From Candidatus Multivoradales bacterium (lineage in GTDB: Bacteria > Acidobacteriota > Thermoanaerobaculia > Multivoradales > Multivoraceae), in the NCBI GenBank assembly GCA_965223325.1, contig CBDCWI010000002.1:544001-608000 (forward strand): DNA of 64,000 nt, in the 5' to 3' direction. The translations under genes and the position numbers were made by a program. Below, one piece after another: positions 42,866 through 60,114 of this stretch; the first letter of the stretch is position 1, and each line of letters opens with the position of its first letter. The notes under the pieces were generated by a model. That model searched no databases. It saw nothing but the letters and a program-made list of their open reading frames with translations, and was not told the origin of the DNA.

Positions 42866-45115
42866 TTACTCGATGGGGGTGGGGGGGCGGTTGTTGCGGA
42901 ACCAGCGCTTGCGGGGTGGTAGGTAGCCGCGGCGGAAGTATTCTTGGCGGCTGCCACGACGGTCGTTGCCCACGAGGAGACCGCTTTCTGGTTCAATTGA
43001 GCGCACGACGACTCTGGGGGGGCGGGCGGGGGCCACCAGGTCGCGAGTCGCGTCGACTCGACGGGCTACTTCTGCCCAAATGGGCCCGGCTGTCGACGCG
43101 CCACCGATGCCGCTGCCGCGACCGTCGTCGGCGCCGATCCAGGCAACGATGACGATGTTGCCAACGCCGCCAACGACCCAGGCATCGCGACCGTTCGACG
43201 ACGTGCCGGTCTTGGCGAACGCCCGGCCCGACATTCCATCGCCGCCGAGCAGCCGACGGGCTGGCTCGCGTAAGACTTCGGTGACCATCCACGCGGTCGT
43301 CGCGCGAGCGACACGTTCGCTGTCGCGGACCTCCCCACCGACGCGACGACCGCCCGGCAGCACGAGGCCACGAATCGCGTGCGGCTCGCGGCGCACTCCA
43401 CCCCCAGCAAGCGCACCGTAGGCGCGGGCGAGATCGACCGGCGTCACCTCGACGGCACCCAGGACGAATGCCGGCGGAACCGGCCTCGGTAGCTGGAGCC
43501 CCGCACGCTCGAAACGATCGGCCACCGCATCGAACGAGCACCAGCGCGCCAGGCGGACAAACGGCACGTTGAGAGATCGCTCGGTGGCCTCACGCAGGGT
43601 GACGAATCCCCGGTGGCGGCCGTCAGGGTTGCGCGGCGACCACGGCTTCGGCTCGAGCTCGATCGTCACCGCGCGATCCGAAACCCGGCGCGCTGGATAG
43701 ACCGGTTTCTGCCGCCCGCAGCGTTCGAAGGCTTCGAGCAGAACGAGCGGCTTGACGGTTGACCCGGGCTGCCGTTTCGACTTGCGCGCCCGGTCGTAGG
43801 AGTCGCCCCCGGACCCCGGACGCCCACCGACCCAGGCCAGCACCCGGCCCGTCTCCGCCTCCATCACGACCACCGAGGCGTTTGCCTGACGGACGCTTTT
43901 CAACCCACGGGTGACAGCCGCCTCGGCCTTCTCTTGCAGCCATGGATCGACCGTAGTCTCGAAGACCAGGCCGCGCCCCGCGTCGGCCCGCGACGGCGCA
44001 CGTTGCTCCCCGCGCTCGGCCAACCAGTCCAGCAGATACCGCGGTCCCGCGGCCTCCGGCCTTCGCACCTGCGCTCTGGGAAGACCACGGCGACGCTCGC
44101 GCGCAACGGCCGCGGCCGACGCCCAGCCTTCTTCCTCCATTGCCGCTAAGACCTGGCGCTGCCGATTGACCAGGCGGTCCGTCGGGCGGTCGGGGTGCAT
44201 CGCGTTGGGCCCCTGCACCATGGCGGCCAAGGTCGCCGCCTCACCGAGATCGAGCTCACGCGCCGACTTGCCAAACCACGCCCGCGCCCCAGCCTCCATG
44301 CCATAGATATTGACCGCGCCCAGATGCCCCATGAAGACATGGTTCAGGTAAGCCTCGAGGATCTCCTCCTTGTCGTGCTCTGCTTCCAGCGAAACAGCCC
44401 GCACCGCCTCCGACACCTTGCGACCGACGGTGCGCTTCGCGGTGAGCTCACGCATCTTGATCAACTGCTGGGTGATGGTGCTGCCGCCTTCCGAGATACG
44501 CCCGCGTTTCAGGTTGGCGAGCAACGCCCGCGCGACCGATCGGCCATCGACGCCCACATGATCGAAGAACCGCCTGTCTTCGATCGCCAGGACCGCACGC
44601 CAAACATGCTCCGGCAGAGAATCGAGTGACACCGGGTGGCGAGCGGCGCGATCGGGCCGCAGACTCTCGGCGAGCAGCTGCGGCTCGAGGACGCCCCACT
44701 CCGGAGCCTCGACCCCTGACAGCGGGTCACCCGCCTCGTCGAGAAAACTCCTCAATCGAACCGGCGAGCCACTGACACCGAGACCAAAGAGGCGCGGTGC
44801 GTAGTCGTCACCGCCATACTGAAAGCCGCGGCGGAAGATCCAGAAGCGTTCATGACCCCAGAAGTACTGCCCCGGACGGTCGGGCCGTCGCCCCCGCACC
44901 CGCTCGTAGCCCAATCGTTCGAGACGTTCAGGAATCCCCGCGGCAACCAGCTCGCTCCCGAGCGCCAGGCGGTAGGGGGCGCTCCATACCCGTGTCTCCG
45001 AGCGCCCGACGTCACGCTCGAGCTCCCCAGCATCGACACGCGCTGCAACGAGAAGCAGCACACCGCCCACAACCGCGTGCCCGATCCGCCCGGCCACCCA
45101 CCGAAGGTCCACCAC
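42866..45115 (-). CDS. mrcB: Class A penicillin-binding protein (PBP1B-like transglycosylase/transpeptidase)
   Basis: EDRRF, GGSTITQQL, RK..E, KEEILEAYLN; STVK, SLN, KTG. Start is approximate; the ORF-track extension overlaps the STAS gene. Confidence 0.85.
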   Translation of the reverse strand: MVDLRWVAGRIGHAVVGGVLLLVAARVDAGELERDVGRSETRVWSAPYRLALGSELVAAGIPERLERLGYERVRGRRPDRPGQYFWGHERFWIFRRGFQYGGDDYAPRLFGLGVSGSPVRLRSFLDEAGDPLSGVEAPEWGVLEPQLLAESLRPDRAARHPVSLDSLPEHVWRAVLAIEDRRFFDHVGVDGRSVARALLANLKRGRISEGGSTITQQLIKMRELTAKRTVGRKVSEAVRAVSLEAEHDKEEILEAYLNHVFMGHLGAVNIYGMEAGARAWFGKSARELDLGEAATLAAMVQGPNAMHPDRPTDRLVNRQRQVLAAMEEEGWASAAAVARERRRGLPRAQVRRPEAAGPRYLLDWLAERGEQRAPSRADAGRGLVFETTVDPWLQEKAEAAVTRGLKSVRQANASVVVMEAETGRVLAWVGGRPGSGGDSYDRARKSKRQPGSTVKPLVLLEAFERCGRQKPVYPARRVSDRAVTIELEPKPWSPRNPDGRHRGFVTLREATERSLNVPFVRLARWCSFDAVADRFERAGLQLPRPVPPAFVLGAVEVTPVDLARAYGALAGGGVRREPHAIRGLVLPGGRRVGGEVRDSERVARATTAWMVTEVLREPARRLLGGDGMSGRAFAKTGTSSNGRDAWVVGGVGNIVIVAWIGADDGRGSGIGGASTAGPIWAEVARRVDATRDLVAPARPPRVVVRSIEPESGLLVGNDRRGSRQEYFRRGYLPPRKRWFRNNRPPTPIE

Positions 45116-45137
45116 CCTCAAGCGAGCGCCACCGCCG

Positions 45138-45485
45138 TCAGGAGAACGACGCGATCGCCGACGACTCGTCGTCGAAGACCTTGAACATCGGCAGGATGTG
45201 CGCCATGCGCAAGACCCTGCCGGCACGATTGCTCTCGTCGGTTGAGCGAATGATCTTGAGGGACGCTCCGAGTTCCTCGGACACCCGCAGGCTTGCCACC
45301 AGTTCCCCAACCCCTGAGGAGTCGATCGACGAAACCTGGGACAGGTTGATCAAGAGCTTCTTGCACTGGTCTGAGAGCAAATCGTTGACGGCATCGCGCA
45401 GCTGCGCATCGCCGGTACCAGCGACCAACTTCCCCTGCAGGTCGATAATTCCGACCCCATCCATCTTCCGGACATCTACTTGCAT
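45138..45485 (-). CDS. STAS domain anti-sigma factor antagonist
   Basis: LLINLSQVSSIDSSGVGELV, E..AIASF. Confidence 0.9.
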   Translation of the reverse strand: MQVDVRKMDGVGIIDLQGKLVAGTGDAQLRDAVNDLLSDQCKKLLINLSQVSSIDSSGVGELVASLRVSEELGASLKIIRSTDESNRAGRVLRMAHILPMFKVFDDESSAIASFS

Positions 45486-45663
45486 GACAGGCGGATTCTA
45501 GCAGCTGATAGAACCGCACCATAGTGTTTCCACGGCAGTCCTTCGTCACGCCGTTCGTCATTCAGCACCCGCCAGCGACCGTCTGTGGCAAGATCGACCC
45601 CAACGACACCAAGCCGTGGACCCGACGACTTCCCTCCCACTCCTTCCTTCGAGGAATCGCTTC

Positions 45664-46311
45664 ATGCCTCATCGACCACGCGCTGCACAGAAAGTCCGCA
45701 GCACCGCGTTCGCGCTGGCGCTCGCCGGTTCGACCCTCACCGGCATCGCGACCGCAGCAGCCGGCACCGAAGACCGTGGCGTCGCCGACTCGGCCAAACA
45801 GGTGCAGCCACTCCTGGTAGGCGCTTCGGTTCCCGACACCACTTTGCTTTCGACCGATGGTGTCGAGACCTCGTTGCACCAGCAGGTCAAGGGTCGCCAC
45901 AGCATCCTGATCTTCTATCGCGGAGGTTGGTGACCGTTCTGCAACGCGCAGCTGGGTCAGCTGCAATCGATTGAGAACGAGCTCACCGAACTGGGATGGC
46001 AGCTCCTCGCCATTTCGCCGGACTCGAGAGAGAGCCTCCAACCAACCGTGGCGAAGAACGAACTCGCCTACTCGATCTACTCCGACCCGAACGCCGACAC
46101 CGCGAAGGCGTTTGGTCTTGCATTCACCGCCCCCGAGGCCTACAACAAGATGCTCGAGAAAGCATCGGGGCAGGACCACCACGTGATCCCGGTGCCGGCG
46201 GTCTACCTGGTCTCGCCGGAGGGCAAGGTGGTGTTCGTTTACACCAACCCCGACTACAAGGTGCGGCTCGAGCCGGCGATCCTTCTTGCCGCCGCCAAGG
46301 CCCTGAAGTAG
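45664..46311 (+). CDS. Secreted AhpC/TSA peroxiredoxin-like selenoprotein (UPFC; Sec TGA at 45931-45933)
   Basis: FYRGGW-TGA-PFCN.QL continues in frame through LLAISPD, IYSD, IPVPAVYLV, NPDYKVRL into ORF 46048-46311; signal peptide; SECIS-like hairpin downstream of the TGA. Confidence 0.88.
45948..45964 (+). promoter_or_regulatory. Putative bacterial SECIS element
   Basis: GCAGCTG-GGT-CAGCTGC perfect 7-bp stem; G-initial loop about 21 nt after the UGA. Confidence 0.75.
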
Positions 46312-46413
46312 CCCGGCCCACCTCCAGCCTCAGTGTTTCGTTGGACAGTCCCGCCCGCCCCGTTCTAGGGTGGCGGGCAAGATCCCGCAACTCAAACTGA
46401 CTTCGGAGGCACC

Positions 46414-48093
46414 ATGCCGAAAAGCGTTCACGCCCTCTTTCTTCGCCGAGGCTCCGGTGCCCACCGTCATGCGCTGCGATTCCTCCTGGTCAGCGCGCTC
46501 TCGATCTTTGCCTGCTTGGGCTGCGAACCGGCGGGGGATCTGGGCGACGAGGAAGCTGCAAAGGCAAATGCCACCGAACAAGAAGCCGGACCGCCCGGGG
46601 GGCCGCCGGCGTGGATCCTCCAGGCAAAACAGCAGCCCCGAGGGTTGATCACCAGCACGCCAGACGCCGCACCCGGCTATCTCCTCTTCTCGACCTTTTC
46701 TCACAGCGCGACCTTCCTGGTCGATACCGCCGGGCAAGTCGTCCACACCTGGGACAGCGACCGATCGGGCTCCTCGAACTACCTCCAGGACGACGGCTCC
46801 CTGATTCGCATTTCGGGGCTCGACAACCCACCAAACTTTCACTCCGGCGGCGTCGCTGGTCATGTCGAGCAGGTCTCCTGGGATGGTGAGCTCCTCTGGC
46901 GCTGGCACTACGCCGACGAAGATAAGATCAACCACCACGACATCGAACCGCTCCCGAACGGCAACCTGCTGGTCATTGCCTGGGAACAGAAGACCGCTCG
47001 AGAAGCCCTCGCCGCCGGCCGCCGCGCCGACCTGGTCGGCAGCAAAGGCATCTGGTCTGAGGTTCTACTCGAAATCGAACCGCTGCCACCTGACGACGCG
47101 CGCATCGTTTGGGAATGGCGCATCTGGGACCACCTCGTGCAGGACATAGACCCTGAGGCCCCGAACTTCGGCGACCCTCGTGCCCATCCCCATCGCCTCG
47201 ACCTCAACGTTGACGCCGATCACGAGGCCATCGACGAAGAGGAACTCGAGCAACTCAAAGCACTCGGCTACGTTCCCGACGACGCCGACATGGACGACAT
47301 CGCCGCAGACTTCCTTCACATGAACAGTGTCGACTACAACGCAGCACTCGATCAGATCCTCCTGAGCATTCCCGAGGTCGACGAGATCTGGATCATCGAC
47401 CACTCGACCACCACAGCCGAGGCGGCCACCAGCTCTGGTGGCCGCTACGGTCGCGGCGGTGATCTGCTCTATCGCTGGGGCAACCCGGCCGCCTACGGCC
47501 GCGGAGACGAGAGCGACATTCAACTCTTCTACCAGCATGAAGCCACCTGGATCAGGGACGGCTCGCCCGGCGCCGGCAACGTCCTACTCTTCAACAACGG
47601 CCGCGACCGGCCCGATCCCGGCTGGTCTACCGTCGACGAGCTCACCCTTCCGGTCGCTGCCGACGGGTCCTACCCTTTGCCCGAGAACGGACCGTGGGGA
47701 CCTCCGGCACCCGCCTGGACCTTTGGCGGCCCGGACCGCCCCGAGTTCTTTGCCGAGTTCGTCTCCGGCGCGCGTCGCCTCCCGAACGGCAACACCTTCA
47801 TCTGCTCGGGCCCGCAAGGGGTCTACTGGGAGGTCACCCCCGACGGTGAAACCGTGTGGGAATACCGCAACCCATTCCACGGCGACTCCACTTCCTGGAC
47901 GCCTCCCGGCACCACCGAGACGTTTCCCTACGGCTCGTTCCGGGCGCACAAGATCGCCCCCGACCACCCCGGCCTAGAGAACCGCAGCTTGCAACCTCTA
48001 GAGGAACAACCTGCCACCTGGACGCCGCATCCGCGTCCCGCCGGACCTCCCGGGGCGCCAGAGGAACAAGCGGCGGCGAACGCCGATGCGTAG
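46414..48093 (+). CDS. Arylsulfotransferase (ASST) family lipoprotein
   Basis: CLGC lipobox-like, NHHDIEPLPNGN.L, DFLHMNSVDY, YRWGNP, QH.A, SGA.RLPNGNT.I. Confidence 0.85.
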   Translation: MPKSVHALFLRRGSGAHRHALRFLLVSALSIFACLGCEPAGDLGDEEAAKANATEQEAGPPGGPPAWILQAKQQPRGLITSTPDAAPGYLLFSTFSHSATFLVDTAGQVVHTWDSDRSGSSNYLQDDGSLIRISGLDNPPNFHSGGVAGHVEQVSWDGELLWRWHYADEDKINHHDIEPLPNGNLLVIAWEQKTAREALAAGRRADLVGSKGIWSEVLLEIEPLPPDDARIVWEWRIWDHLVQDIDPEAPNFGDPRAHPHRLDLNVDADHEAIDEEELEQLKALGYVPDDADMDDIAADFLHMNSVDYNAALDQILLSIPEVDEIWIIDHSTTTAEAATSSGGRYGRGGDLLYRWGNPAAYGRGDESDIQLFYQHEATWIRDGSPGAGNVLLFNNGRDRPDPGWSTVDELTLPVAADGSYPLPENGPWGPPAPAWTFGGPDRPEFFAEFVSGARRLPNGNTFICSGPQGVYWEVTPDGETVWEYRNPFHGDSTSWTPPGTTETFPYGSFRAHKIAPDHPGLENRSLQPLEEQPATWTPHPRPAGPPGAPEEQAAANADA

Positions 48094-48412
48094 GTACCAC
48101 CACATGGGTATCCCGACCAAAGAGCGGCTCCCAGACGAGGTCCACCTCGAGCACCTCAAGGTCTACGTCAGCGGCTACCGCGAGAGCGAGTTCAACATCG
48201 AGTGGATGCGCTACGAAAACGACGCGCCCTACCCCGAGCTCGTCAAGACCGTTCCCCATGTCGCCTTCGAGGTCGATGACCTGGAGGCAGCGATCGCGGG
48301 CAGAAAGGTGATCATCGAACCCAACAGCCCCAGCCCAGGAGTGCGGGTGGCAATGATCGAAGACAACGGTGCGCCGATCGAGTTCCTCGAGATCGACGAC
48401 ACCGTAAGGTAG
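48086..48412 (+). CDS. VOC/glyoxalase-like protein
   Basis: YHHMGIPT, PHVAFEVDDL, GAPIEFLE. Confidence 0.8.
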   Translation: MRRYHHMGIPTKERLPDEVHLEHLKVYVSGYRESEFNIEWMRYENDAPYPELVKTVPHVAFEVDDLEAAIAGRKVIIEPNSPSPGVRVAMIEDNGAPIEFLEIDDTVR

Positions 48413-48871
48413 CGAGGGGCGTGGTACGAACGCCCACCTCGACCCCGTCAACCGGCACCCACCACTGACCGCGGGAACGATGAAGGCACGGTCGGCCTGA
48501 CCGGGAGCGGTCCTGAGCCTTCTACAGTCCCTTCATCGAAGGATTCCGCGGCGCGCGACGGAAGACCGCAGTCTCAGGTCGAATGTGCAGGGCGACCGCC
48601 GTCGAACCAGGCTCGCGCTACGGACCGCCTGCGCCGCAAGAGTGACGGTAGCGAGGGGCGTGGTACGAACGCCCACCTCGACCCCGTCAACCGGCACCCA
48701 CCAGCGACCGCGGGAACGATGAAGGCACGGTCGGGCCTGACCGGGAGCGGTCCTGAGCCTTCTACAGTCCCTTCATCGAAGGATTCCGCGGCGCGCGACG
48801 GAAGACCGCAGTCTCAGGTCGAATGTGCAGGGCGACCGCCGTCGAACCAGGCTCGCGCTACGGACCGCTTG

Positions 48872-50781
48872 GATACGCCGGGATAAACCGGCATGGAGAA
48901 AGGAATGAGAGAGTCCCACCCTCGAAGGGGTAGCGACCCAGAGGGTCCCCGAGTCATGCGCCGGCTCCCGCGAGGGTGCGGTGAAGCGTTGACAGGGGCA
49001 CACACAGGCCGGGTATTGAGCCGCGAAATAAGAATTTGGGAGTGCCGACGCTGTCAAGCGAAGCGGAAGGCGAGACTCCGTAGCGCGCTATCGCGAGCTC
49101 TGCGGCGACTCCCCGCGGTCGTAGACCCTGTGCATGTGTGGAATCTCCATGCGCGAGAACCGGGAGATCCGCGATCTGGCCAGTTGGGTATCTGGTCCGC
49201 ATCGGGAAGGCTAGAGGCCGTAAGCCGATGACGCACGGATGGCGGAAGTCAGACAGGCCCGTAGTACCTGCGAAGTCGTCGAACAACGGTGGGAGACCAG
49301 CGGCGGAGGCGGTGGAGGGAAGGGGCCTGGCCAAGGGGAACACGGGCAAGCAAAACGCACCCCGGACACAGAGCCGGATGGAGAGTGCGAGCAATGCGCT
49401 GGGCCGTGTACGAGAAGCCGCCCGCAGGGGCAAGGAAGTGAAGTTCACAGCGCTTCTTCACCACATCACGGTCGAGCGACTCCGGAGCGCATTTGACGTG
49501 TTGCACCGAGACGCAGCGGCAGGAGTGGACGGAGTGTCATGGAGCGAGTACGCAGAATCTTTGCTGAGCAATCTCGAGGACCTGCACTCTCGTGTCCACC
49601 GTGGGAGCTACCGGGCGAGTGCGACTCGTCGCGTCTACATCGAGAAATCGGATGGGCGGTTCCGACCGCTTGGCATCGCCACGTTGGAGGACAAGATCCT
49701 TCAGCGCGCCGTCGTCTCGGTGTTGGATGCGATCTACGAGGAAGACTTTCTCGGGTACTCATACGGATTCAGGCGAGGCCGCAGCCAGCACGATGCTTTG
49801 GATGCGCTATTCGTTGGAATCACAAAGCGGAAGGTGAACTGGGTGCTCGACGCAGACATTCGTGGGTTCTTCGATGCCCTGGACCACGAGTGGCTGGTGA
49901 AGTTTCTCGAGCACCGTATCGGAGACCGTAGGATCCTTCGCCTCATCCAGAAATGGCTGAGGTCCGGAGTGATGGAAGACGGTAAGTGGCACGCGAGCAC
50001 GCGGGGGACTCCTCAGGGGGCGACGATTTCGCCTCTCCTCGGGAACGTGTACCTGCACTACGTGCTCGATCTCTGGGTCCAGCAGTGGAGGAAACGCAAC
50101 GCGCTTGGGGACATGATCTTCGTGCGCTACGCGGATGACTTCATCGTTGGATTTGAGAGGCAGGAGGAGGCAGAACGATTCCTCGAGGAACTGAACCTGC
50201 GACTCCGTGACTTCTCGTTGGAGATCCAACCCGAGAAGACGCGCCTGCTGGAGTTTGGCCGCTTTGCGGCCTACAACCGACGCGCGCGAGGTCTCGGGCG
50301 GCCGGAGACCTTCGAGTTTCTAGGCTTTACGCACTGCTGTGCGCAGTCTAGTCGAGGGAGGTTCTTGCTGAAGCGCATCACGAGCCGCCACCGAATCCGC
50401 AGGACACTGAAGGCTGTCGGTACGGCCCTTCTGGGACACCGACACTCGCCGCTACCAGAGCAAGGTCTCTGGCTGGGATCCGTGGTGCGAGGCTTCAATG
50501 CCTACTACGGCGTACCCGGCAACTCAGCGGCGTTGAACGCCTTTCGACAGGAGGTCATTCGGCACTGGATGCGCGCTCTGCGCCGACGCAGTGACAAAGA
50601 CCGCACGTCCTGGAAACGGATGTGGGCCCTGGTGGCCCACTACCTACCCAAAGCCCGAGTCCAACATCCCTGGCCTGATGAGCGACTTGTCGTCAATACC
50701 TGAGGCAGGAGCCCAGTGCATTAGCAGTGCACGCTGGGATCTGTGCGGGGGGCGCCGGGCAACCGGCGCTCCTACCGCGAT
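48872..50781 (+). mobile_element. Group II intron (IIB-type, tentatively bacterial class E), apparently full length
   Basis: Removing 48872-50781 restores the repeat (CGCTTG|CGCCGC); EBS1 CAAGCG (49055-49060) complements IBS1 CGCTTG (48866-48871); DV GAGCCCAGTGC..GCACGCTGGGATC near 50709-50741; DVI ends CCTACCGCGAT. Confidence 0.93.
49228..50703 (+). CDS. ltrA: Group II intron reverse transcriptase/maturase (no endonuclease domain evident)
   Basis: RPLGI..LEDK, SYGFR, DADI.GFFD, GTPQG..ISPLL.N.YL, RYADD, FLGF, domain X; ends just before DV. Confidence 0.95.
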   Translation: MTHGWRKSDRPVVPAKSSNNGGRPAAEAVEGRGLAKGNTGKQNAPRTQSRMESASNALGRVREAARRGKEVKFTALLHHITVERLRSAFDVLHRDAAAGVDGVSWSEYAESLLSNLEDLHSRVHRGSYRASATRRVYIEKSDGRFRPLGIATLEDKILQRAVVSVLDAIYEEDFLGYSYGFRRGRSQHDALDALFVGITKRKVNWVLDADIRGFFDALDHEWLVKFLEHRIGDRRILRLIQKWLRSGVMEDGKWHASTRGTPQGATISPLLGNVYLHYVLDLWVQQWRKRNALGDMIFVRYADDFIVGFERQEEAERFLEELNLRLRDFSLEIQPEKTRLLEFGRFAAYNRRARGLGRPETFEFLGFTHCCAQSSRGRFLLKRITSRHRIRRTLKAVGTALLGHRHSPLPEQGLWLGSVVRGFNAYYGVPGNSAALNAFRQEVIRHWMRALRRRSDKDRTSWKRMWALVAHYLPKARVQHPWPDERLVVNT

Positions 50782-51127
50782 CGCCGCAAGAGTGACGGTA
50801 GCGAGGGGCGTGGTAAGAACGCCCACCTCGACCCCGTCAACCGGCACCCACCACCGACCGCGGAAACGATGAAGGCACGGTCGGGCCTGACCGGGAGCGG
50901 TCCTGAGCCTTCTACAGTCCCTTCATCGAAGGATTCCGCGGCGCGCGACGAAAGACCGCAGTCTCAGGTCGAATGTGCAGGGCGACCGCCGTCGAACCCG
51001 GCTCGCGCTACGGACCGCTTGCGCCGCAAGAGTGACGGTAGCGAGGGGCGTGGTAAGAACGCCCACCTCGACCCCGTCAACCGGCACCCACCACTGACCG
51101 CGGAAACGATGACAACCACGCCCCTCG

Positions 51128-52348
51128 CTACCTCTCGGTGATCACACGGTGGGCGCGCAGGCGCAAGGCGTTGAGACGGATAAAGCCCTGCGCATCCGTC
51201 TGGTCGTAGCCGCCCGCTACGTCCATTGACGACAACTCCTGGTTGTAGAGCGAGCTCGGCGAGCGCCGCCCGAGAATACGCACATTGCCCTTGTAGAGCT
51301 CGATCCCGACCGTGCCGTCGATGAGCTCCTCGGCCTTCGCGAACGCCGCGCGAATAAAGTCCATTTCGGGGCTGAACCAGAAACCGTTGTAGATCAACTC
51401 GGTGAATTTCGGCGACAGGCTGTCGCGGAGCCGCAGGACCTCGCGGTCCATCGCGATGCCTTCGAGATCGCGCAAGGCTGCATGCAAGACCGTCCCGGCA
51501 GGCGTTTCGTAGACCCCCCGCGACTTGATGCCAACGAAACGGTTCTCGACGATGTCGATACGGCCCACCCCGTGCTCGGCGGCCAGTTCGTTGAGCCGTA
51601 CGAAAAGCGCCAGAGGCTCGCGCTCTTCTCCGCCCGGCCAGTTCAACTGCACCGGCCGCGCGTCCCGGAAGCGAAGCTCGATCTCGACCGCCTCGTCGGG
51701 CGCATCGAAAGCCGAACGCGTCAGGTCGTACATCGAGTCCGGCGGCGTTTTCGCCGGGTCTTCGAGCATGCCCGCTTCATAGCTCTTGTGCATGAGGTTT
51801 TCATCCATGCTGTAGGGCTTCTCAGACGATGCCTCGATGGGGATTCCCTCCTTCTCGGCGTACTCCAACAAGTCGGTGCGGCCGCGAAAGCGAGCCAAGA
51901 ACTCGGAGTCTTTCCATGGCGCGATGACTTCGAGGTGAGGCCCCAGTGCCGCGTACGCGAGTTCGAAACGCACCTGGTCGTTGCCCTTGCCAGTGGCACC
52001 GTGCCCCACCGCAGTGGCTCCGTGTTCGATCGCACAGTCGACTTGCGCGCGCGCGATCAGCGGACGCGCCAGAGAGGTGCCTAGAAGGTAGCGGTTTTCA
52101 TATACCGCGTTGCCAGCCACCGCCGGAAAGATGAAGTCGGTGACGAACTCTCCCTTGAGGTCGGCAATGATCACATCGGAGGCGCCAATCGCCTCCGCGC
52201 GCCGCGCACCGACCTCGAAGTCTTCGTTCTGGCCTACATCGGCAATGAAGGCGATGACGTCGTAGCCCTTCTGCTGCAGAACGCGCAGAATGACCGAGGT
52301 GTCGAGGCCCCCGGAGTAGGCAAGTACCGCTTTCTTCTTGGTCGACAT
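51128..52348 (-). CDS. argG: Argininosuccinate synthase
   Basis: [43 protein letters not shown]. Confidence 0.96.
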
Positions 52349-52513
52349 CGGAAGCTTCCTTCCTGTTGGGTTCATCTTGTGTGAGATGGGGCCGGCGCAG
52401 TATCCCCCATCCGGCCCCGGATCGGAACCCTTCGAGCGTGCGCTTTGCCGCAAGTGGGCCCACGCCGTCAAACCCAGAGGGCGCGGGCCGGAGTCTTGGA
52501 AGACTGTGGGCTC

Positions 52514-53869
52514 CTAGAGCGCCTCCACCGCTCGCACCGTGCCGCGGAATCGAGTGCGAATGCGCAGCGCCAACAGGATCGCGACGATCGAAAGGCCAAC
52601 GGTCAGACCCCACCATAGGCCCTCCGGGCCCATCCCGCGCCGGAAGGTCAGCCACCAGCCCAACGGCAGGCCAATCACCCAGAAGCCGACGAACGCCAAG
52701 AGCGCCGGCACCCGGGTGTCCGCAAGACCACGCAGAACCCCCGACGCCACCGCTTGCACCCCATCGCCAAGTTGGAAGATGGCCGCGATCGGAATCAAGC
52801 CAGCCGCCAGAGCGATCACTTCGGGTTCGGTCGTATAGAGGCCGGCCAGGAGCTGAGGCAAGGTCGCAAAGAGCACTGCAAATGCCAGCATCACGGTCGA
52901 GCCCGAAGCCAGAGCAAGGCCGGCCGCCACTCGCGCCTCCCCAACCGCCTCTCGCCCGATCGCGTTACCCACCACGGTAGAAGCCGCCTGGCCGATGCCG
53001 AGGGGAACCATGAACGAAAGGCTCGCCAGGTTGATCGCGATCTGATGGGCCGCCATCGGCACCGCACCGAGGCTACCCATGATCAGAGCCACGACTGAAA
53101 ACACCAGGTACTCAATTCCGACATGAAGCGCGATGGGACAACCGATCACCAGGACCTGAACGAGTCCTCGCATGTGGACCGCGGCAAGCTGAAAACGCCT
53201 GGCGAGCGGAAACAGACGGCGGCGCCCGAAGAACAGCAACGAGACCACGAGCACCCATCGCGAAAGAGAGGTTGCCAGTGCCGAGCCACTCACACCGAGT
53301 GCCGGGAAGCCGAAGTAGCCGAAGACCAACGCGAGGTTCGCAAAGACGTTGAAGACGTTGGCGACCACGATCGCCTCGACCGCGGGGCGCACGACGCGCA
53401 TGCTCTGCAGGGTCGAGCGCAGTACTCCGTAGATGAGAAACGCCAGGTTGCCCGGAAGAAGCGCGATCAGGTACTGGCCCGCCGGGTTCAATAGCTCGTC
53501 GCTCTGGCCCAAGAGATCGAGGTTCGAGGCGAACCACAGCATCGAACCGGTCACGGGCACCGTGACCGCCAACGAGACCACGAGACCGCGCAGGAAGACG
53601 TTTGCGACCCGCTGCTCGTCGCCAGCACCCCAAGCCTGCGCGATCAGGGGATCGAGCGCCAACAACAACGCCATGCCGAGAATCAAATGCCCCATCGCGA
53701 CGACATGGCCGAGCGCCCCCGCCGCCAGTGCGACTTCTGAAACCCGACCGAGCATCATCACGTCGACCGTTCCGGTCAGCATGAGACCGAACTGAACGGC
53801 TGCGATCGGCGCTGCCAGCGAGAGCAAACTAGCCAACGGCGCACGCAGAGACTCCAGACCACGTTTCAC
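52514..53869 (-). CDS. MATE family efflux transporter
   Basis: VDVMMLG, N..LVFG.FGFPALGV.G, AAHQIA, FQL.DG.Q...SGVLRG..DT; about 12 TM helices. Confidence 0.9.
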   Translation of the reverse strand: MKRGLESLRAPLASLLSLAAPIAAVQFGLMLTGTVDVMMLGRVSEVALAAGALGHVVAMGHLILGMALLLALDPLIAQAWGAGDEQRVANVFLRGLVVSLAVTVPVTGSMLWFASNLDLLGQSDELLNPAGQYLIALLPGNLAFLIYGVLRSTLQSMRVVRPAVEAIVVANVFNVFANLALVFGYFGFPALGVSGSALATSLSRWVLVVSLLFFGRRRLFPLARRFQLAAVHMRGLVQVLVIGCPIALHVGIEYLVFSVVALIMGSLGAVPMAAHQIAINLASLSFMVPLGIGQAASTVVGNAIGREAVGEARVAAGLALASGSTVMLAFAVLFATLPQLLAGLYTTEPEVIALAAGLIPIAAIFQLGDGVQAVASGVLRGLADTRVPALLAFVGFWVIGLPLGWWLTFRRGMGPEGLWWGLTVGLSIVAILLALRIRTRFRGTVRAVEAL

Positions 53870-54038
53870 TGCGCGACCTTACAGCCACCCACCGTCTGCA
53901 GTCGTTCTACGAGGAGTCAGCCGAGCGCCATCTGGCGTGCACCTGTTTCTCCAACGACTCGGTACCTGGCTGCCCGTCCGACCTCGGACCGGGACGGTAG
54001 GTCCATCGAGGCGCTTTCGTTCGCGCCACCACAGACTC

Positions 54039-55658
54039 CTAGTGCCCGAGCGCCGGCCCGGGACGGACCAACCGGAACTCGCCGCCGCGATGAGGCACCA
54101 CCGCGACCTCCAGAGCCTGATCCTCGACCGCTGAACCCTGTTGATGCGAATCGGGAACGGTTGGAACGGGCCGCGGCGACGGTGCAACGATGTAGGCACC
54201 TTCCGGTGGCGCCCGGTGATCCGAGAATGTTCGAACTGGATGGTCGAGGTAGTAGTAGAGCGACGAATGTTTTCCCGCGGCATCGGCCGGCGTGCGCACC
54301 CACACCGTCTCGCCGGGTGGAAGGTAGGAGCGCAGCACCTCTGCGTTGGCTGATTGCTCGCGCGAGCTGGCCCGCCGCGGAATGAGAACGAACGCCTGCG
54401 CCACCGCAAGAACCAGCGAGGTTGCCACCAGGAGCGTCGCCACCGACCGACCAGGTCTTCTGGGCACGGGAATCGCGAACGTCCCGAGGAGCCCACAAGC
54501 CAGAATCACTCCCGGCCACAGTGGAACCATCAACCAGACCGCCGCCGCCATGCCGGCGGCCGCCAGAACGAGCAGCAACCCGCGCAGGCCAACCATCGCC
54601 GCTCGTGGAACCGGTCGTTCGAGCAGCGCATCGAGCGACAGCGCCACCAGAATGGCGTGCGCCGTGACCAACGGCAGGTAGTAGCGGCTCTCGTTCGTTG
54701 GAACGAGCACAAAGGGAACGAGACCGGCACCGAGGAACGCAGCCGCCGCCCGCCCCATCCGCTGACGCACCTGGTCACCAGAGGCCACGGCTCCGCCAGC
54801 CAGCAGCAGACACACACTCCACGGAAGGAACGATGCCAGCACCACGAGTGGTTTGGCGAGCGTGATCGAAAAACTCGAAAGGTCCCATCCGCCAGATCGC
54901 ATCTGCGCCTCGCGCAGCGGATGCTCGAACACCGACCATCCGCCCACCAGATAGGCCTGGCGAAGGTAGACCCCGACAACCAGCGCGAACAGCGAGGCAG
55001 CCAACAGGTGTCGCCACGAAAAGAGCGCCGGAAGATTCCTGGTGAAGACTGCTGCCAGGATCAAACCTGGCGCGAAGGCCATCAACGCCGGCGTGCCTTT
55101 GGCGAGGAACCCCACCGACAGTCCCAGGTAGGCCAGCAACCAAAGCCCGAGGTGGGGCCTACGAGCCGCTAGATTGGCCGTCGCACAAACCACCGCTGTG
55201 CCCACCCCGAATGCCAAAGGCGTATCGAACTCGGCCACCCTCACCTTCTCGAGCAGAAGCGGCGTTCCCGTCACCGCCAGCGCCGCGAACAAACCAACCC
55301 GTGGGGTCACCCGCCGACCGAGGACGACGAAGACCACCAGACTGAGCGCCACCGCACAGAGTGCGAACGGCAGACGCAGGATCCACTCGTTGGCCGGCCC
55401 CGGGAGCGCCTGTGCGGCGGCCGACAGCCAGTACGCCAGGGCCGGCTTGTAGGTGTACATCTCACCGTAGACCTCCGGCACGACCCAGCTGCCTCCAGCG
55501 AGCATGGTGCGGCCGCCGTCGACCACCATGCCCTCCATCCCCATGACCCCGAAGCCTCCGAGGTTGGCGAGACAGGTCAGGGCAACGAACACACCCCACA
55601 CCACAAAGGCGGCGGGCCAGCGCTCGATCTCAACGGTCCAATGGCGGTCGGTCTTCAT
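54039..55658 (-). CDS. ArnT/GT39-like integral membrane glycosyltransferase
   Basis: WVVP...GE.Y.YKP.L.YW, RLP, FLAKG, LPW, RYYLPL; many TM helices. Confidence 0.8.
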   Translation of the reverse strand: MKTDRHWTVEIERWPAAFVVWGVFVALTCLANLGGFGVMGMEGMVVDGGRTMLAGGSWVVPEVYGEMYTYKPALAYWLSAAAQALPGPANEWILRLPFALCAVALSLVVFVVLGRRVTPRVGLFAALAVTGTPLLLEKVRVAEFDTPLAFGVGTAVVCATANLAARRPHLGLWLLAYLGLSVGFLAKGTPALMAFAPGLILAAVFTRNLPALFSWRHLLAASLFALVVGVYLRQAYLVGGWSVFEHPLREAQMRSGGWDLSSFSITLAKPLVVLASFLPWSVCLLLAGGAVASGDQVRQRMGRAAAAFLGAGLVPFVLVPTNESRYYLPLVTAHAILVALSLDALLERPVPRAAMVGLRGLLLVLAAAGMAAAVWLMVPLWPGVILACGLLGTFAIPVPRRPGRSVATLLVATSLVLAVAQAFVLIPRRASSREQSANAEVLRSYLPPGETVWVRTPADAAGKHSSLYYYLDHPVRTFSDHRAPPEGAYIVAPSPRPVPTVPDSHQQGSAVEDQALEVAVVPHRGGEFRLVRPGPALGH

Positions 55659-56931: not shown

Positions 56932-59565
56932 ATGGATTTCGCTGTTACTCTGGGGTGGATGCGCGATGACGCCGAATCCTTCGCGACGGGTGGTTCACTA
57001 CCTGGCCAACCGCTGCACTTTCGGCTCGCGGTGCTCATGGTGGCCCTCGCGACCCTCGCCGCCGCCTCGCCCGTCTGCGCGCAAAACGCCAGTGAACCTC
57101 GGTCACTCAGAAGCGCTCTCGAAGAACTGGCAGCCAACGGCCTGTCGGTCATCTTCACCGAAGCGCTCGTCCTCGAGCACATGCAGGTGACCGAGGAGCC
57201 CCAGACCGATGACCCGGTCGTCGTGTTGCAGGCGCTCCTGGCGCCCCATGGACTGGTCGCTCTCGAGCGCACCGAGGGGCTTTGGGTCGTCGCTCGCGCA
57301 ACCGGCGCACGCCTCAGCCAGGGAATCGCCGGCAGGGTGCTGGCTCGACACTCACAAGAACCCGTCGCTGGGGTCTCGCTCTCTGCCCGGAACCTGAGCG
57401 GCAACGCTTCTCACCAAACGACCAGTCGCGGCGACGGTCACTTCGCGTTGCCGGACCTTCCGGCGGGAAGCTACTCGTTGGTGTTCGAACGAACCGGCTT
57501 CTTGCCCGAGACCTTGGCAAGGCTCGACGTGCGCGAGGAAGGCACACCGCTGGTCACCGCCTGGATGACCGCTGCACCATACCTGCACGAAGAAATCGTC
57601 GTGCGCTCTGGCAACATCACCTTGATCGGCGCCAATCCCGCGTCGCCTCTTTCGCTGAGTCGTGATCAGATCGAAGCACTCCCCCACCTCGGCAACGACG
57701 TCTTTCGGACGCTCGAGCTGTTCCCTGGCGTCACCAGCAACGACATCAGCGCCAGGTTCAACGTGCATGGCGGGCGACCGGACGAGGTCAAGGTCCTTCT
57801 GGATGGCCAGGAACTCTACAACGCCTTCCACCTCGAGGACTGGGGTGGCGCGCTGTCGCAAGTGGACGCCGGTGAGCTCGGCAATGCCGCCCTCACGACC
57901 GGTGGGTTCGCCGCCGAACATGGCGACCGCATGGGCGCGGTGCTCGACCTTCGCACCCGCGGCGCCTCCGGGCCTCTTCGAGGCCGCCTGAACGCCTCGC
58001 TGCTCTCCATTGCGCTCTCGGGTGCCGGCCCGATCGCGCGCGAACGGGGAGGTTGGTTGGCCTCGGCCCGGCGCGGGTCGCTCGACCTTGCGGGCCGCCT
58101 CTACGGAGACGAGAGGCCGGAGTTCTGGGATGGGTTCGCAAAGCTCGAGTGGATACCGACAAGTCGAGAGCGCCTCCGTGCCCATAGCCTGACCGCCCGC
58201 AACCAGCTGCGTTTCACCGAGCAGGTCCTTGGCGACGACTTCATCGAGGAGTCCAACTTCGCAACCAACTACAACAACGCGGTTCACTGGCTGAGCCATC
58301 AGGTGGCAGTCGGCTACCACTCGCTGGCCACCACCCGTGTCTCGTGGTCTGAGGCGAGCCGCAATCGACTCGGCCTCGAGAACGAAGAGGACCAGAGCTT
58401 CATGGTCGACGATCGTCGAGACAGCTCCGTCATTGACCTGTCCCATGGCTGGATCTTTCAACTCAGCCCTCGGCGGAGTCTCGAGGCGGGTCTCCAGGCA
58501 CGGAGGTTCGACGCGGAGTTCGACTACTTCAACCGCTCCGATCAAGAGCTCGGCGTCGCTGCTCCGGGAAGCGCTGCGAGCACCTCGGACCGCGTACAAA
58601 CCAGCCACCGAAGCGACCACTTCGGCAGCTACGTCACCGGTCGCTTCGCTCCCGACCCACTCACGATCGAGGTCGGCCTACGCTACGACCGCCACACCTT
58701 GACCGATGACACGCTCCTGAGCCCGCGTTTCAACCTGGCCTGGCGAGTAGCCCCGAGAACCGTCGCACGGCTTCATTGGGGTCTCTTTCATCAAAGCCAG
58801 AGGCCCTACGAACTGCAGGTCGAAGACGGCGTTTCCACCTTCTTTCCCGCCGAGCGTTCGGAACACCGGACACTCAGCTTCGAACAGCAGGTGAACCGAA
58901 AAGCCAGCGCACTCCTCCGCACCGTGCGCGTCGAGCTCTACCGTCGCGAGGTCGACAACCCACGGCCTGAGTGGCGCAACATCTACGAACCCTTCAACAC
59001 CTTCCCCGAGGTCGAGCGCGATCGGACGTTCCTGGCGCCCGACTACCGCCTCGCCGAAGGCGTCGAGTTGTCGCTTCGCGGCGGCGGGCACAGGAACGTG
59101 GGCTGGTGGCTGAACTACACGCACGGGACGTCTGAAGATCACCGTGGGTCGGAGCGTCTCCCGCGCCCGCAGAGCGAACCCGACAGCGCCGCTTTCGGCC
59201 TCAATCTCATCTTGCCGCGGCACTTCCAACTCAACCTCGCCTGGCGGTACCACACCGGCTGGCCCACGACTCCTGCCAGCCTCGCCTTCAGGCCCGACGA
59301 AGACGGCGAACCTACGCCTATTCTGATCGCGGGCTCGCTCTACGCCGACCGCCTGCCCGACTACCATCGATTGGACATCCGTCTCAGTCGGCGCTGGCAG
59401 TTTTCGTCGTCGCAACTGCGCATCTTTCTCGACCTGCAGAACGCCTACGATCGCGACAACATCGCCGGCTTCGACTTCGAGGTCACGGACGATGGGTTGT
59501 TGGAACGCCATCCGGAGGAATGGGCGGGGATCTTTCCGTCGCTAGGGATCGATTTCCGGTGGTAA
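56932..59565 (+). CDS. TonB-dependent receptor with N-terminal STN-like and carboxypeptidase-regulatory-like domains
   Basis: Signal peptide, GRV...PVAG.....G.F.L..LPAG.Y, plug D.FR.L...PGV / VHGG, GLRYD, SPRFN, terminal aromatic FRW. Start uncertain (56959 or 57037 possible). Confidence 0.88.
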   Translation: MDFAVTLGWMRDDAESFATGGSLPGQPLHFRLAVLMVALATLAAASPVCAQNASEPRSLRSALEELAANGLSVIFTEALVLEHMQVTEEPQTDDPVVVLQALLAPHGLVALERTEGLWVVARATGARLSQGIAGRVLARHSQEPVAGVSLSARNLSGNASHQTTSRGDGHFALPDLPAGSYSLVFERTGFLPETLARLDVREEGTPLVTAWMTAAPYLHEEIVVRSGNITLIGANPASPLSLSRDQIEALPHLGNDVFRTLELFPGVTSNDISARFNVHGGRPDEVKVLLDGQELYNAFHLEDWGGALSQVDAGELGNAALTTGGFAAEHGDRMGAVLDLRTRGASGPLRGRLNASLLSIALSGAGPIARERGGWLASARRGSLDLAGRLYGDERPEFWDGFAKLEWIPTSRERLRAHSLTARNQLRFTEQVLGDDFIEESNFATNYNNAVHWLSHQVAVGYHSLATTRVSWSEASRNRLGLENEEDQSFMVDDRRDSSVIDLSHGWIFQLSPRRSLEAGLQARRFDAEFDYFNRSDQELGVAAPGSAASTSDRVQTSHRSDHFGSYVTGRFAPDPLTIEVGLRYDRHTLTDDTLLSPRFNLAWRVAPRTVARLHWGLFHQSQRPYELQVEDGVSTFFPAERSEHRTLSFEQQVNRKASALLRTVRVELYRREVDNPRPEWRNIYEPFNTFPEVERDRTFLAPDYRLAEGVELSLRGGGHRNVGWWLNYTHGTSEDHRGSERLPRPQSEPDSAAFGLNLILPRHFQLNLAWRYHTGWPTTPASLAFRPDEDGEPTPILIAGSLYADRLPDYHRLDIRLSRRWQFSSSQLRIFLDLQNAYDRDNIAGFDFEVTDDGLLERHPEEWAGIFPSLGIDFRW

Positions 59566-59676
59566 CGATCGCCGTGGTTTGACGGCCTCTTTAGGGCGAC
59601 GGTGGGTTCGGGTGGCGGTGCTGTTGGAGCGGCTGACTCGTGAGTGCGGCAGGTCGTTACCACGGCGATCGTTACC
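59561..59676. repeat. Module bounded by an 18-bp inverted repeat (GGTAACGATCGCCGTGGT)
   Basis: 59561-59578 is the exact reverse complement of 59659-59676; 14/18 identical to the 48.4-kb terminal motif. Confidence 0.9.
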
Positions 59677-59728
59677 CGTCACTTTTGCGGCGCAAGCGCT
59701 CCGACGGGCGGGCTGTGTGCGGGGGCGC

Positions 59729-60114
59729 TCGCCCTGCACTTGCGATCTCGGACTACGGCGGCCCGGCGCGCGCCGCGGATTCTTACCCTCTCGAAACCTC
59801 TTCCCGGAAGTCCTTCTCAGAGCTCCCTGGCTGGATGACCGCCAGATCGCTACCGGTCGCCCTGCACTTGCGATCTCGGACTGCGGTGGCACGGCGCGCG
59901 CCGCGGATTCTTGCCCTCTCGAAACCTCTTCCCGGAAGTCCTTTTCAGAGCTCCCTGGTTGGATGACCGCCAGATCGCTACCGGTCGCCCTGCACTTGCG
60001 ATCTCGGACTGCGGTGGCACGGCGCGCGCCGCGGATTCTTGCCCTCTCGAAACCTCTTCCCGGAAGTCCTTTTCAGAACTCCCTGGCTGGATGACCGCCA
60101 GATCGCTACCGGTC
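59729..60114. repeat. Three tandem 128-bp repeats
   Basis: TCGCCCTGCACTTGCG starts at 59729, 59857 and 59985; near-identical units. Confidence 0.95.

Follow-up and report, generated by a model that had tools for sequence, protein, structure and literature searches.

The question raised by this locus is how a group II intron came to lie inside a tandem array of intergenic repeats, and whether it met the repeat by chance or is specialised on it. The array was found in the genome of Candidatus Multivoradales bacterium (assembly GCA_965223325.1), a soil-type bacterium, in the gap between two converging genes of a 64,000-nt stretch, hereafter the window, which corresponds to C2:544001-608000 of the genome (contigs C1 and C2). 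Genome-wide comparison of intron copies and repeat copies indicates that an active, endonuclease-less group II intron very probably retrohomes into one conserved site of a composite repeat module, termed M.

Intron copies and their insertion site

The boundaries of the intron were established by comparison with an uninterrupted repeat unit. Tandem Repeats Finder (TRF) reported the array upstream of the intron at 48408-48868 with a period of 240 and 98% matches; beyond the intron it continues from 50782 to 51132, for a total of approximately 3.4 units. With the intron removed, unit 2 matches unit 3 at all but 5 of 240 positions, without indels, which bears out the first-pass annotation of this DNA in its claim that an intron encoding a reverse transcriptase (RT) splits unit 2 and that excision restores the unit. 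The empty site of unit 3 reads ...CCGCTTG/CGCCGC (a slash marks the insertion point), and only one boundary placement restores unit 2. The mismatched target CGCCTG in unit 1 and the perfect empty site in unit 3, both described earlier, are likewise present in the sequence (Table 1).

Fourteen full-length intron copies are present in the genome, 12 of them identical (3445 bits) and 2 with one mismatch (3441 bits), and the same 14 were recovered with the Rfam family RF02005. All are preceded directly by CGCTTG and followed directly by C. Thirteen copies lie at a single column of module M, each oriented in the sense of M and each at a locus of its own, with flanks that differ among the 13. The remaining copy, on the minus strand at C2:2349730-2351639, is ectopic: its surroundings, ...GAGCGCTTG/C, are unrelated and contain no module, and it runs in the sense direction of an open frame of 234 aa. 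Empty CGCTTGC sites number 1797 genome-wide, including 114 in module copies, so that M holds 127 of 1811 potential CGCTTG/C sites (7%) and 13 of the 14 insertions, for which a simple binomial gives about 1e-14 (our own arithmetic). The occupancy of module sites is 13/127 (~10%), and four CGCCTGC variants of the target, including that of unit 1, occur in the repeat family. The first-pass proposal that a dispersed non-coding repeat family serves as a multicopy target is therefore upheld by 13 of 14 copies at one module column and 13 loci. One copy does sit in unrelated sequence, yet the family occupies about 57 loci, not the one or two that would have made the insertion look like a chance event.

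On the DNA contigs of run X2, depth was ~103 on the intron and ~10 on its flank, and the intron copy number is therefore not an assembly artefact. Although their labels name other organisms, runs X5 and X6 have the insertion flanks of this genome and hence are not independent. The introns are identical, but identity among the repeat arrays has dropped to 70-80%, so the arrays are much the older of the two.

Several further arrangements were observed around intron copies. A 5'-truncated remnant (C2:4242250-4242488) comprises the last 237 nt of the intron at 97% identity, preceded by an AT-rich stretch and still attached to the 3' portion of a module with its terminal hairpin. At C1:819930-824174 two arrays with near-identical hairpin arms stand head to head in inverted orientation, and an intron copy (C1:821002-822911) lies at the inner end of the minus-strand array. 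A module sub-family carries an extra C5-6/G6/G6 insert (CCCCC..GGGGGG..GGGGGG) just 3' of the intron site (C2:85297-85436, C2:4065335-4065485, C2:4105380-4106035, C2:3795038-3795726 and C2:510637-513536), and this variant forms the 3' exon of two intron copies.

The element was identified as a group II intron by both its RNA and its protein. The RF02005 match exceeds the gathering score of 49 bits by a wide margin (180.6 bits), is the sole Rfam match in 44000-55000 at E<=1, and has no counterpart in any of 14 control genomes. The intron-encoded protein passes NCBIfam TIGR04416 (group II RT/maturase) with 342.6 bits against a cut-off of 300, and its sole Pfam match is RVT_1 (8e-39). No HNH or endonuclease (En) domain was found in the protein by Pfam search, which is compatible with classes A, C, D, E or F as given in an excerpt of PMC3552965. 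The non-coding portion of the intron amounts to ~434 nt, counted from ATG 49228. Its last 78 nt fold as a pair of hairpins, candidates for domains 5 and 6 (D5 and D6): the first stem has AGC at its base, and a UA bulge lies 7-8 nt before the 3' end, its A (50774) being the candidate branch point. All 14 copies begin with GAUACG, and the 3' end is AU; both the non-canonical 5' end and the lack of an evident En domain noted in the first pass are confirmed. The 5' ends of related introns are GUACG, GAGCG, GUAGCG and GUGUG, and that of the window intron looks like GUACG with an additional A after G1.

The repeat family

Comparison across the genome revealed that the 240-bp period describes this array correctly but not the family: only ~140 nt of the unit, module M, form the conserved core, and the remainder is locus-specific. 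Iterated nhmmer searches yielded 113, then 176, then 177 module matches in 57 clusters of 1-7 copies each, with periods of 130-360 bp, and approximately 44 of the 57 loci contain no intron. Such dispersal of many copies within one lineage is that of an interspersed repeat; its total extent is ~35-45 kb by our estimate. Besides the two loci in the window, C2:3545377-3545700 is one further locus of the family. Unit breakpoints vary from array to array. The arrays show no replication-strand bias (29/59 co-oriented). Cumulative GC skew falls monotonically across all of C1 and has its extremes on C2 at ~0.35 and 3.5 Mb; C1 and C2 may be fragments of a single chromosome instead of separate replicons.

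The loci share the architecture (M-S-V-L)n followed by a terminal S-V-C, in which S is an arm of roughly 18 nt, C is its reverse complement, which mostly occurs a single time, at the 3' end, V is a stretch rich in C and A, as a rule 74-82 nt long but sometimes 60 nt or 3-4 nt, and L is a locus-specific linker. Canonical terminal elements number 31, and the 27 with a full-length loop span 242-249 nt. The S-C stem, 17-18 bp long, contains 13-15 covarying pairs and hardly any G-U pairs. S and C thereby form terminal inverted repeats, although their sequences differ between loci, unlike classical transposase-bound inverted repeats. Within M, helix P1 comprises 10 bp with a TT bulge; 99% of its cells are paired, three pairs have changed on both sides, and in variant loci the outer arms are wholly different yet complementary. 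The intron site is in the 3' strand of P1, one base 3' of the conserved TT bulge, ~75 nt from the partner strand and without a U-tract. Neither a mutual-information scan nor a stem scan supported any further helix inside M, nor did a trial helix, P3, hold up (66% paired). Hairpin-only elements, S-V-C without M, were observed at C2:1640907-1641021, C2:1789978-1790756, C2:4105022-4105267 and C2:3512400-3512566; one of these lies in the gyrB-gyrA spacer and has the same inner stem motif.

The terminal hairpins are tied to the ends of neighbouring genes. Each of the 34 terminal hairpins whose closing arm is perfect bears a stop triplet at the base of its stem, usually TAG and otherwise TGA or TAA. 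In 29 of the 34, this triplet closes, on the opposite strand, a converging open frame no shorter than 100 codons, against 14-15% for stop-complement triplets taken at random. That the stem-base variants are TGA and TAA rather than sense codons suggests selection keeping a stop. In the window, CTA 51128-51130 supplies the stop of argininosuccinate synthase, and TAG 48410-48412 in the first S arm is the stop of the upstream open reading frame (ORF).

The family was sought beyond this genome with a covariance model (R1) built from 31 modules, applied to relatives with stricter filters and with 50 candidates scored per genome. While R1 gives at least 50 matches in the genome of the window, 60 relatives from that genome's genus, family and order yielded no match, and a strict pattern search of 60 relatives gave none apart from one chance-looking match. 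The strict pattern listed at least 120 stretches in metagenomes, and none of the 80 that were scored by the covariance model is a family member. The term lineage-specific means here that the repeat did not turn up in the genomes covered by the search; even the closest relatives are remote, with 70-74% nucleotide identity in argG and synteny lost in the four relatives examined. No Rfam family matched the repeat, the best E-value among 20 elements being 0.23, below the gathering score. A tRNA-like origin was considered and rejected, no tRNA-like or tmRNA-like gene being found in the repeat.

Table 1. Features of the intron-bearing array and its surroundings (window coordinates; EBS and IBS, exon- and intron-binding site; aa, amino acids)
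Feature	Position	Strand	Evidence or remark
Group II intron, full length, 1910 nt	48872-50781	+	Boundaries by empty-site comparison with unit 3
Ribozyme domain 1 region, Rfam RF02005 (group-II-D1D4-6)	48910-49128	+	180.6 bits, E 1.6e-53, model positions 1-225 of 225
EBS1 CAAGCG, terminal loop of a domain 1 hairpin (Rfam alignment)	49055-49060	+	Pairs with 5' exon CGCTTG
RT/maturase ORF, 491 aa + stop	49228-50703	+	Alternative later start ATG 49378
Predicted domains 5 and 6	50704-50781	+	Fold -46.9 kcal/mol, z -3.9
Repeat unit 1, 239 nt, begins with hairpin arm S	48408-48646	+	Sequence reading, TRF
Unit 1 target-site variant CGCCTG, unoccupied, one mismatch to EBS1	48626-48631	+	Sequence reading
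Repeat unit 2, 5' part (5' exon)	48647-48871	+	Ends in IBS1 CGCTTG at 48866-48871
Repeat unit 2, 3' part (3' exon, first base C)	50782-50796	+	
Repeat unit 3, intact module M	50797-51036	+	Covariance-model match 50916-51063
Empty perfect intron site in unit 3	51016-51021/51022	+	Sequence reading
5' strand of helix P1, module M, unit 3	50938-50947	+	Partner strand 51016-51027 holds the intron site
Terminal hairpin S-V-C, 18-bp stem, 60-nt loop	51037-51132	+	CTA 51128-51130 = argG stop, minus strand
Upstream ORF, 108 aa, no Pfam family	48086-48412	+	Stop codon inside first S arm
Argininosuccinate synthase gene (argG), converging on the array	51128-52471	-	PF00764, PF20979
Second locus of the repeat family, no intron	59556-60057	-	One full module/terminal element and two partial modules

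Exon pairing, related introns and rival explanations

Pairing between EBS1 and IBS1 comprises six of six Watson-Crick pairs at all 14 sites. Domain 1 (D1) was aligned with related introns of other genomes (56-62% protein identity), and the EBS1 loop co-varies with the last six bases of the 5' exon across five intron lineages: CAAGCG with CGCTTG in the window intron, UAAGCG with CGCTTA in gammaproteobacterial metagenome-assembled genomes (MAGs), UAACCG with CGGTTA in one Steroidobacteraceae MAG copy, CCAGGU with ACTTGG or ATCTGG in a Solirubrobacterales MAG, and UAAGCU with GGCTTA in a Granulosicoccus MAG. This co-variation makes the EBS1 call sound and lends independent support to the first-pass pairing of CAAGCG (49055) with CGCTTG. 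The accompanying assignment of EBS3 to G49072 finds no support, as the homologous position is A in 6 of 8 aligned gammaproteobacterial copies despite a C at +1. The +1 base is C in most related intron copies. Inspection by eye found no complement of exon bases -7 to -12 in any D1 loop that could serve as EBS2.

The related introns are associated with insertion sequences (ISs) or other repeated DNA. The ltrA intron of Pseudomonas putida plasmid NZ_CP047313 adjoins the tnpA side of an annotated IS66-family element, ~100 nt from the genes of that element, and its exon reads ...CCGGACGCTTA/C. Two gammaproteobacterial MAG copies have an identical 5' flank of at least 70 nt and differing 3' flanks, which fits insertion at the edge of a repeated element. 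The gammaproteobacterial MAG introns L102 and L104 and the plasmid copy (L258) share the 5' flank ...GAAGGTGAGTTCGCC...CGCTTA, followed by unrelated 3' flanks, and all three seem to be inserted at the very edge of such an element. In Solirubrobacterales the copies lie within a DUF772/DDE transposase gene, which they interrupt. The site in module M, ...ACGGACCGCTTG/C, is similar to the IS-associated site of the relatives, with IBS1 differing by one base. It is plausible from these resemblances that the window intron came by horizontal transfer from a lineage targeting IS-associated sequence or IS ends, and that it came to fit module M through its one-base difference in EBS1.

Taken together, the intron would retrohome into a short conserved site, roughly GGACCGCTTG/C, within the 3' strand of the covarying helix P1, M being the repeated core of a lineage-specific composite interspersed repeat at ~57 intergenic loci. 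Recognition would rest on the 6-bp EBS1-IBS1 pairing and the C at +1, and a few upstream bases (CGGA), common to the targets of related introns, are probably also used. That the intron currently moves and splices, and which bases matter beyond IBS1 and +1, we infer from the sequences. Because the site is non-coding and present in ~127 copies, insertion would carry a low cost to the host and vacant sites would always be at hand.

Targeting could instead be guided by structure in the manner of class C (IIC) introns, the bulged P1 stem being read in single-stranded DNA while EBS1 and the +1 base fix the exact phosphate. The location of the site inside a covarying 10-bp helix, one base 3' of the TT bulge, is in keeping with this, as are the small ribozyme (non-ORF part ~434 nt), the lack of an EBS2 candidate in the D1 loops and a protein without an En domain; insertion of IIC introns at terminator and attC motifs is described in an excerpt of PMC4424553. 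The ectopic copy, however, has no module and only ...GAGCGCTTG/C before and after the insertion point. Its IBS1, like that of the others, is the full 6 bp, whereas IIC introns use shorter IBS1 pairings. Furthermore, the near-identical CGGA-CGCTTA/C of the relatives occurs in a very different context, beside an IS66-family element, pointing to sequence reading, and IIC RTs in the PDB are no closer to the intron protein than LtrA is (1e-41 vs 8e-38, a non-discriminating comparison). Guidance by structure is thus considered rather unlikely, and still less credence is given to the proposal that the target is a structured, tandemly expandable element whose terminal hairpin donates stop codons to genes converging on it, whose core folds single-stranded around P1 and whose fold is read by the intron as a fourth recognition mode beside homing sites, terminators and attC. 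Passive spread of the intron through duplication and dispersal of an intron-bearing repeat unit is conceivable, given that the repeats are both tandemly amplified and dispersed, but it is largely refuted and scarcely credible: no array has two introns, the introns are identical despite strong differences among the 13 flanks in S/C arms and variable regions, and one copy lies in unrelated sequence.

The origin of the arrays bears on two further readings. The first-pass suggestion that the intron RT contributes to repeat amplification could draw on the presence of the RT in 14 copies and on array C2:700738-701362, which has truncated units ending within a few bases of the intron site. It finds no support in the family as a whole and is very unlikely, as approximately 44 of 57 loci lack the intron, unit breakpoints are array-specific, the arrays are older and far more diverged than the intron copies, and no cDNA hallmarks were seen. 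Alternatively, the modules could be genes for a functional structured RNA, for example a 3'-untranslated-region or antisense element, with the intron residing in an RNA gene rather than in junk. Covariation in P1 and the S-C stem, the tightly held length of the terminal element (242-249 nt in 27 canonical full-loop elements) and its fixed position relative to stop codons speak for this; the lack of matches in the 60 relatives, the same genus included, the lack of supported helices in the interior of M, stems nearly devoid of G-U pairs, as expected of DNA-level or two-strand constraints, and a copy number of 1 to 7 per locus speak against it, and the proposal is judged doubtful. The repeat would rather be selfish DNA resembling BOX elements or MITEs (miniature inverted-repeat transposable elements), expanded by local tandem duplication.

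Some observations weigh against retrohoming into a mobile repeat as proposed here. The intron departs from the group II boundary consensus of 5' GUGYG and 3' AY given in an excerpt of PMC4028801, its 3' AU fitting and its 5' end not, and the Rfam D5-D6 family RF00029 has no match at E<=1 in 44000-55000; ribozyme competence is therefore deduced from the identical, precisely bounded copies. No pair of filled and empty alleles was found in other strains, the contigs of the X runs breaking at repeats, and the introns have no replication-strand bias (8 co-oriented, 6 head-on). The extended motif GGACCGCTTGC has 90 copies genome-wide that appear, by an estimate from the position table rather than a direct count, to lie largely within M, which makes sequence-based and structure-based recognition inseparable in silico. 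For the repeat itself, no target-site duplication or empty site was found, and the only check for an autonomous partner, the IS66 transposase (PF03050), found none in the genome of the window, so that mobility of the repeat is putative.

Comparison with known systems

Homing into multicopy, largely harmless or selfish DNA is a known strategy, applied here to a new kind of target. RmInt1 of Sinorhizobium meliloti reportedly homes into ISRm2011-2. Like the window intron, it is endonuclease-less, ORF-bearing and present in high copy number (excerpts of PMC4615759 and PMC5894124). Its homing site, too, would lie in another multicopy element. The window intron differs in having a non-coding tandem-array repeat rather than an insertion sequence as its target and GAUACG as its 5' end; RmInt1 belongs to class D. 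Similarities with IIC introns at terminators and attC sites include the small ribozyme, the missing En domain, low site occupancy, a target that is multicopy, non-coding and has secondary structure, and, as far as inspection by eye goes, no evident EBS2 (excerpts of PMC4424553 and PMC3522654). The window intron differs in its 6-bp IBS1, its site inside a long-range helix, the absence of a U-tract and an ectopic copy without such structure, and it does not lie just downstream of a terminator or attC stem-loop. The introns of the P. putida plasmid, the gammaproteobacteria and Solirubrobacterales share the ribozyme type, an alignable D1 and the EBS1 hairpin, are multicopy and have targets associated with mobile DNA, but have other 5' ends and an EBS1 that is off by one or more bases, and none lies in module M. 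In an excerpt of Tobes & Pareja (PMC1525189), 2 of 9 P. putida group II intron copies adjoin repetitive extragenic palindromes (REPs).

The closest parallel to the repeat is the pneumococcal BOX element, boxA-(boxB)n-boxC, which in an excerpt of PMC3049150 is likewise composite, with complementary terminal modules and a variable tandem internal module, is enriched at convergent gene ends and is restricted to one lineage. In comparison with BOX, the repeat unit described here is much larger (130-360 bp) and has a 140-nt conserved core with its own covarying helix, while its terminal stem holds a stop codon used by the neighbouring gene and its arms differ between loci. In the literature, no description was found of this repeat nor of an intron specialised on such arrays. 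The target repeat is thus the novel part of the system: a previously undescribed composite family with a covarying helix and a terminal hairpin that supplies stop codons. As a sizeable non-coding family with real covariation and a strict relation to stop codons, it is of a kind that annotation pipelines will miss.

For the intron, the system is a compact case of retargeting, in which one EBS1 base change relative to the nearest relatives (U to C) and the shared upstream CGGA match a site present ~127 times in harmless DNA. It offers a natural system for the minimal contacts that define a group II homing site, for the ways in which target secondary structure helps or hinders invasion, and for how occupancy stays low (~10%).

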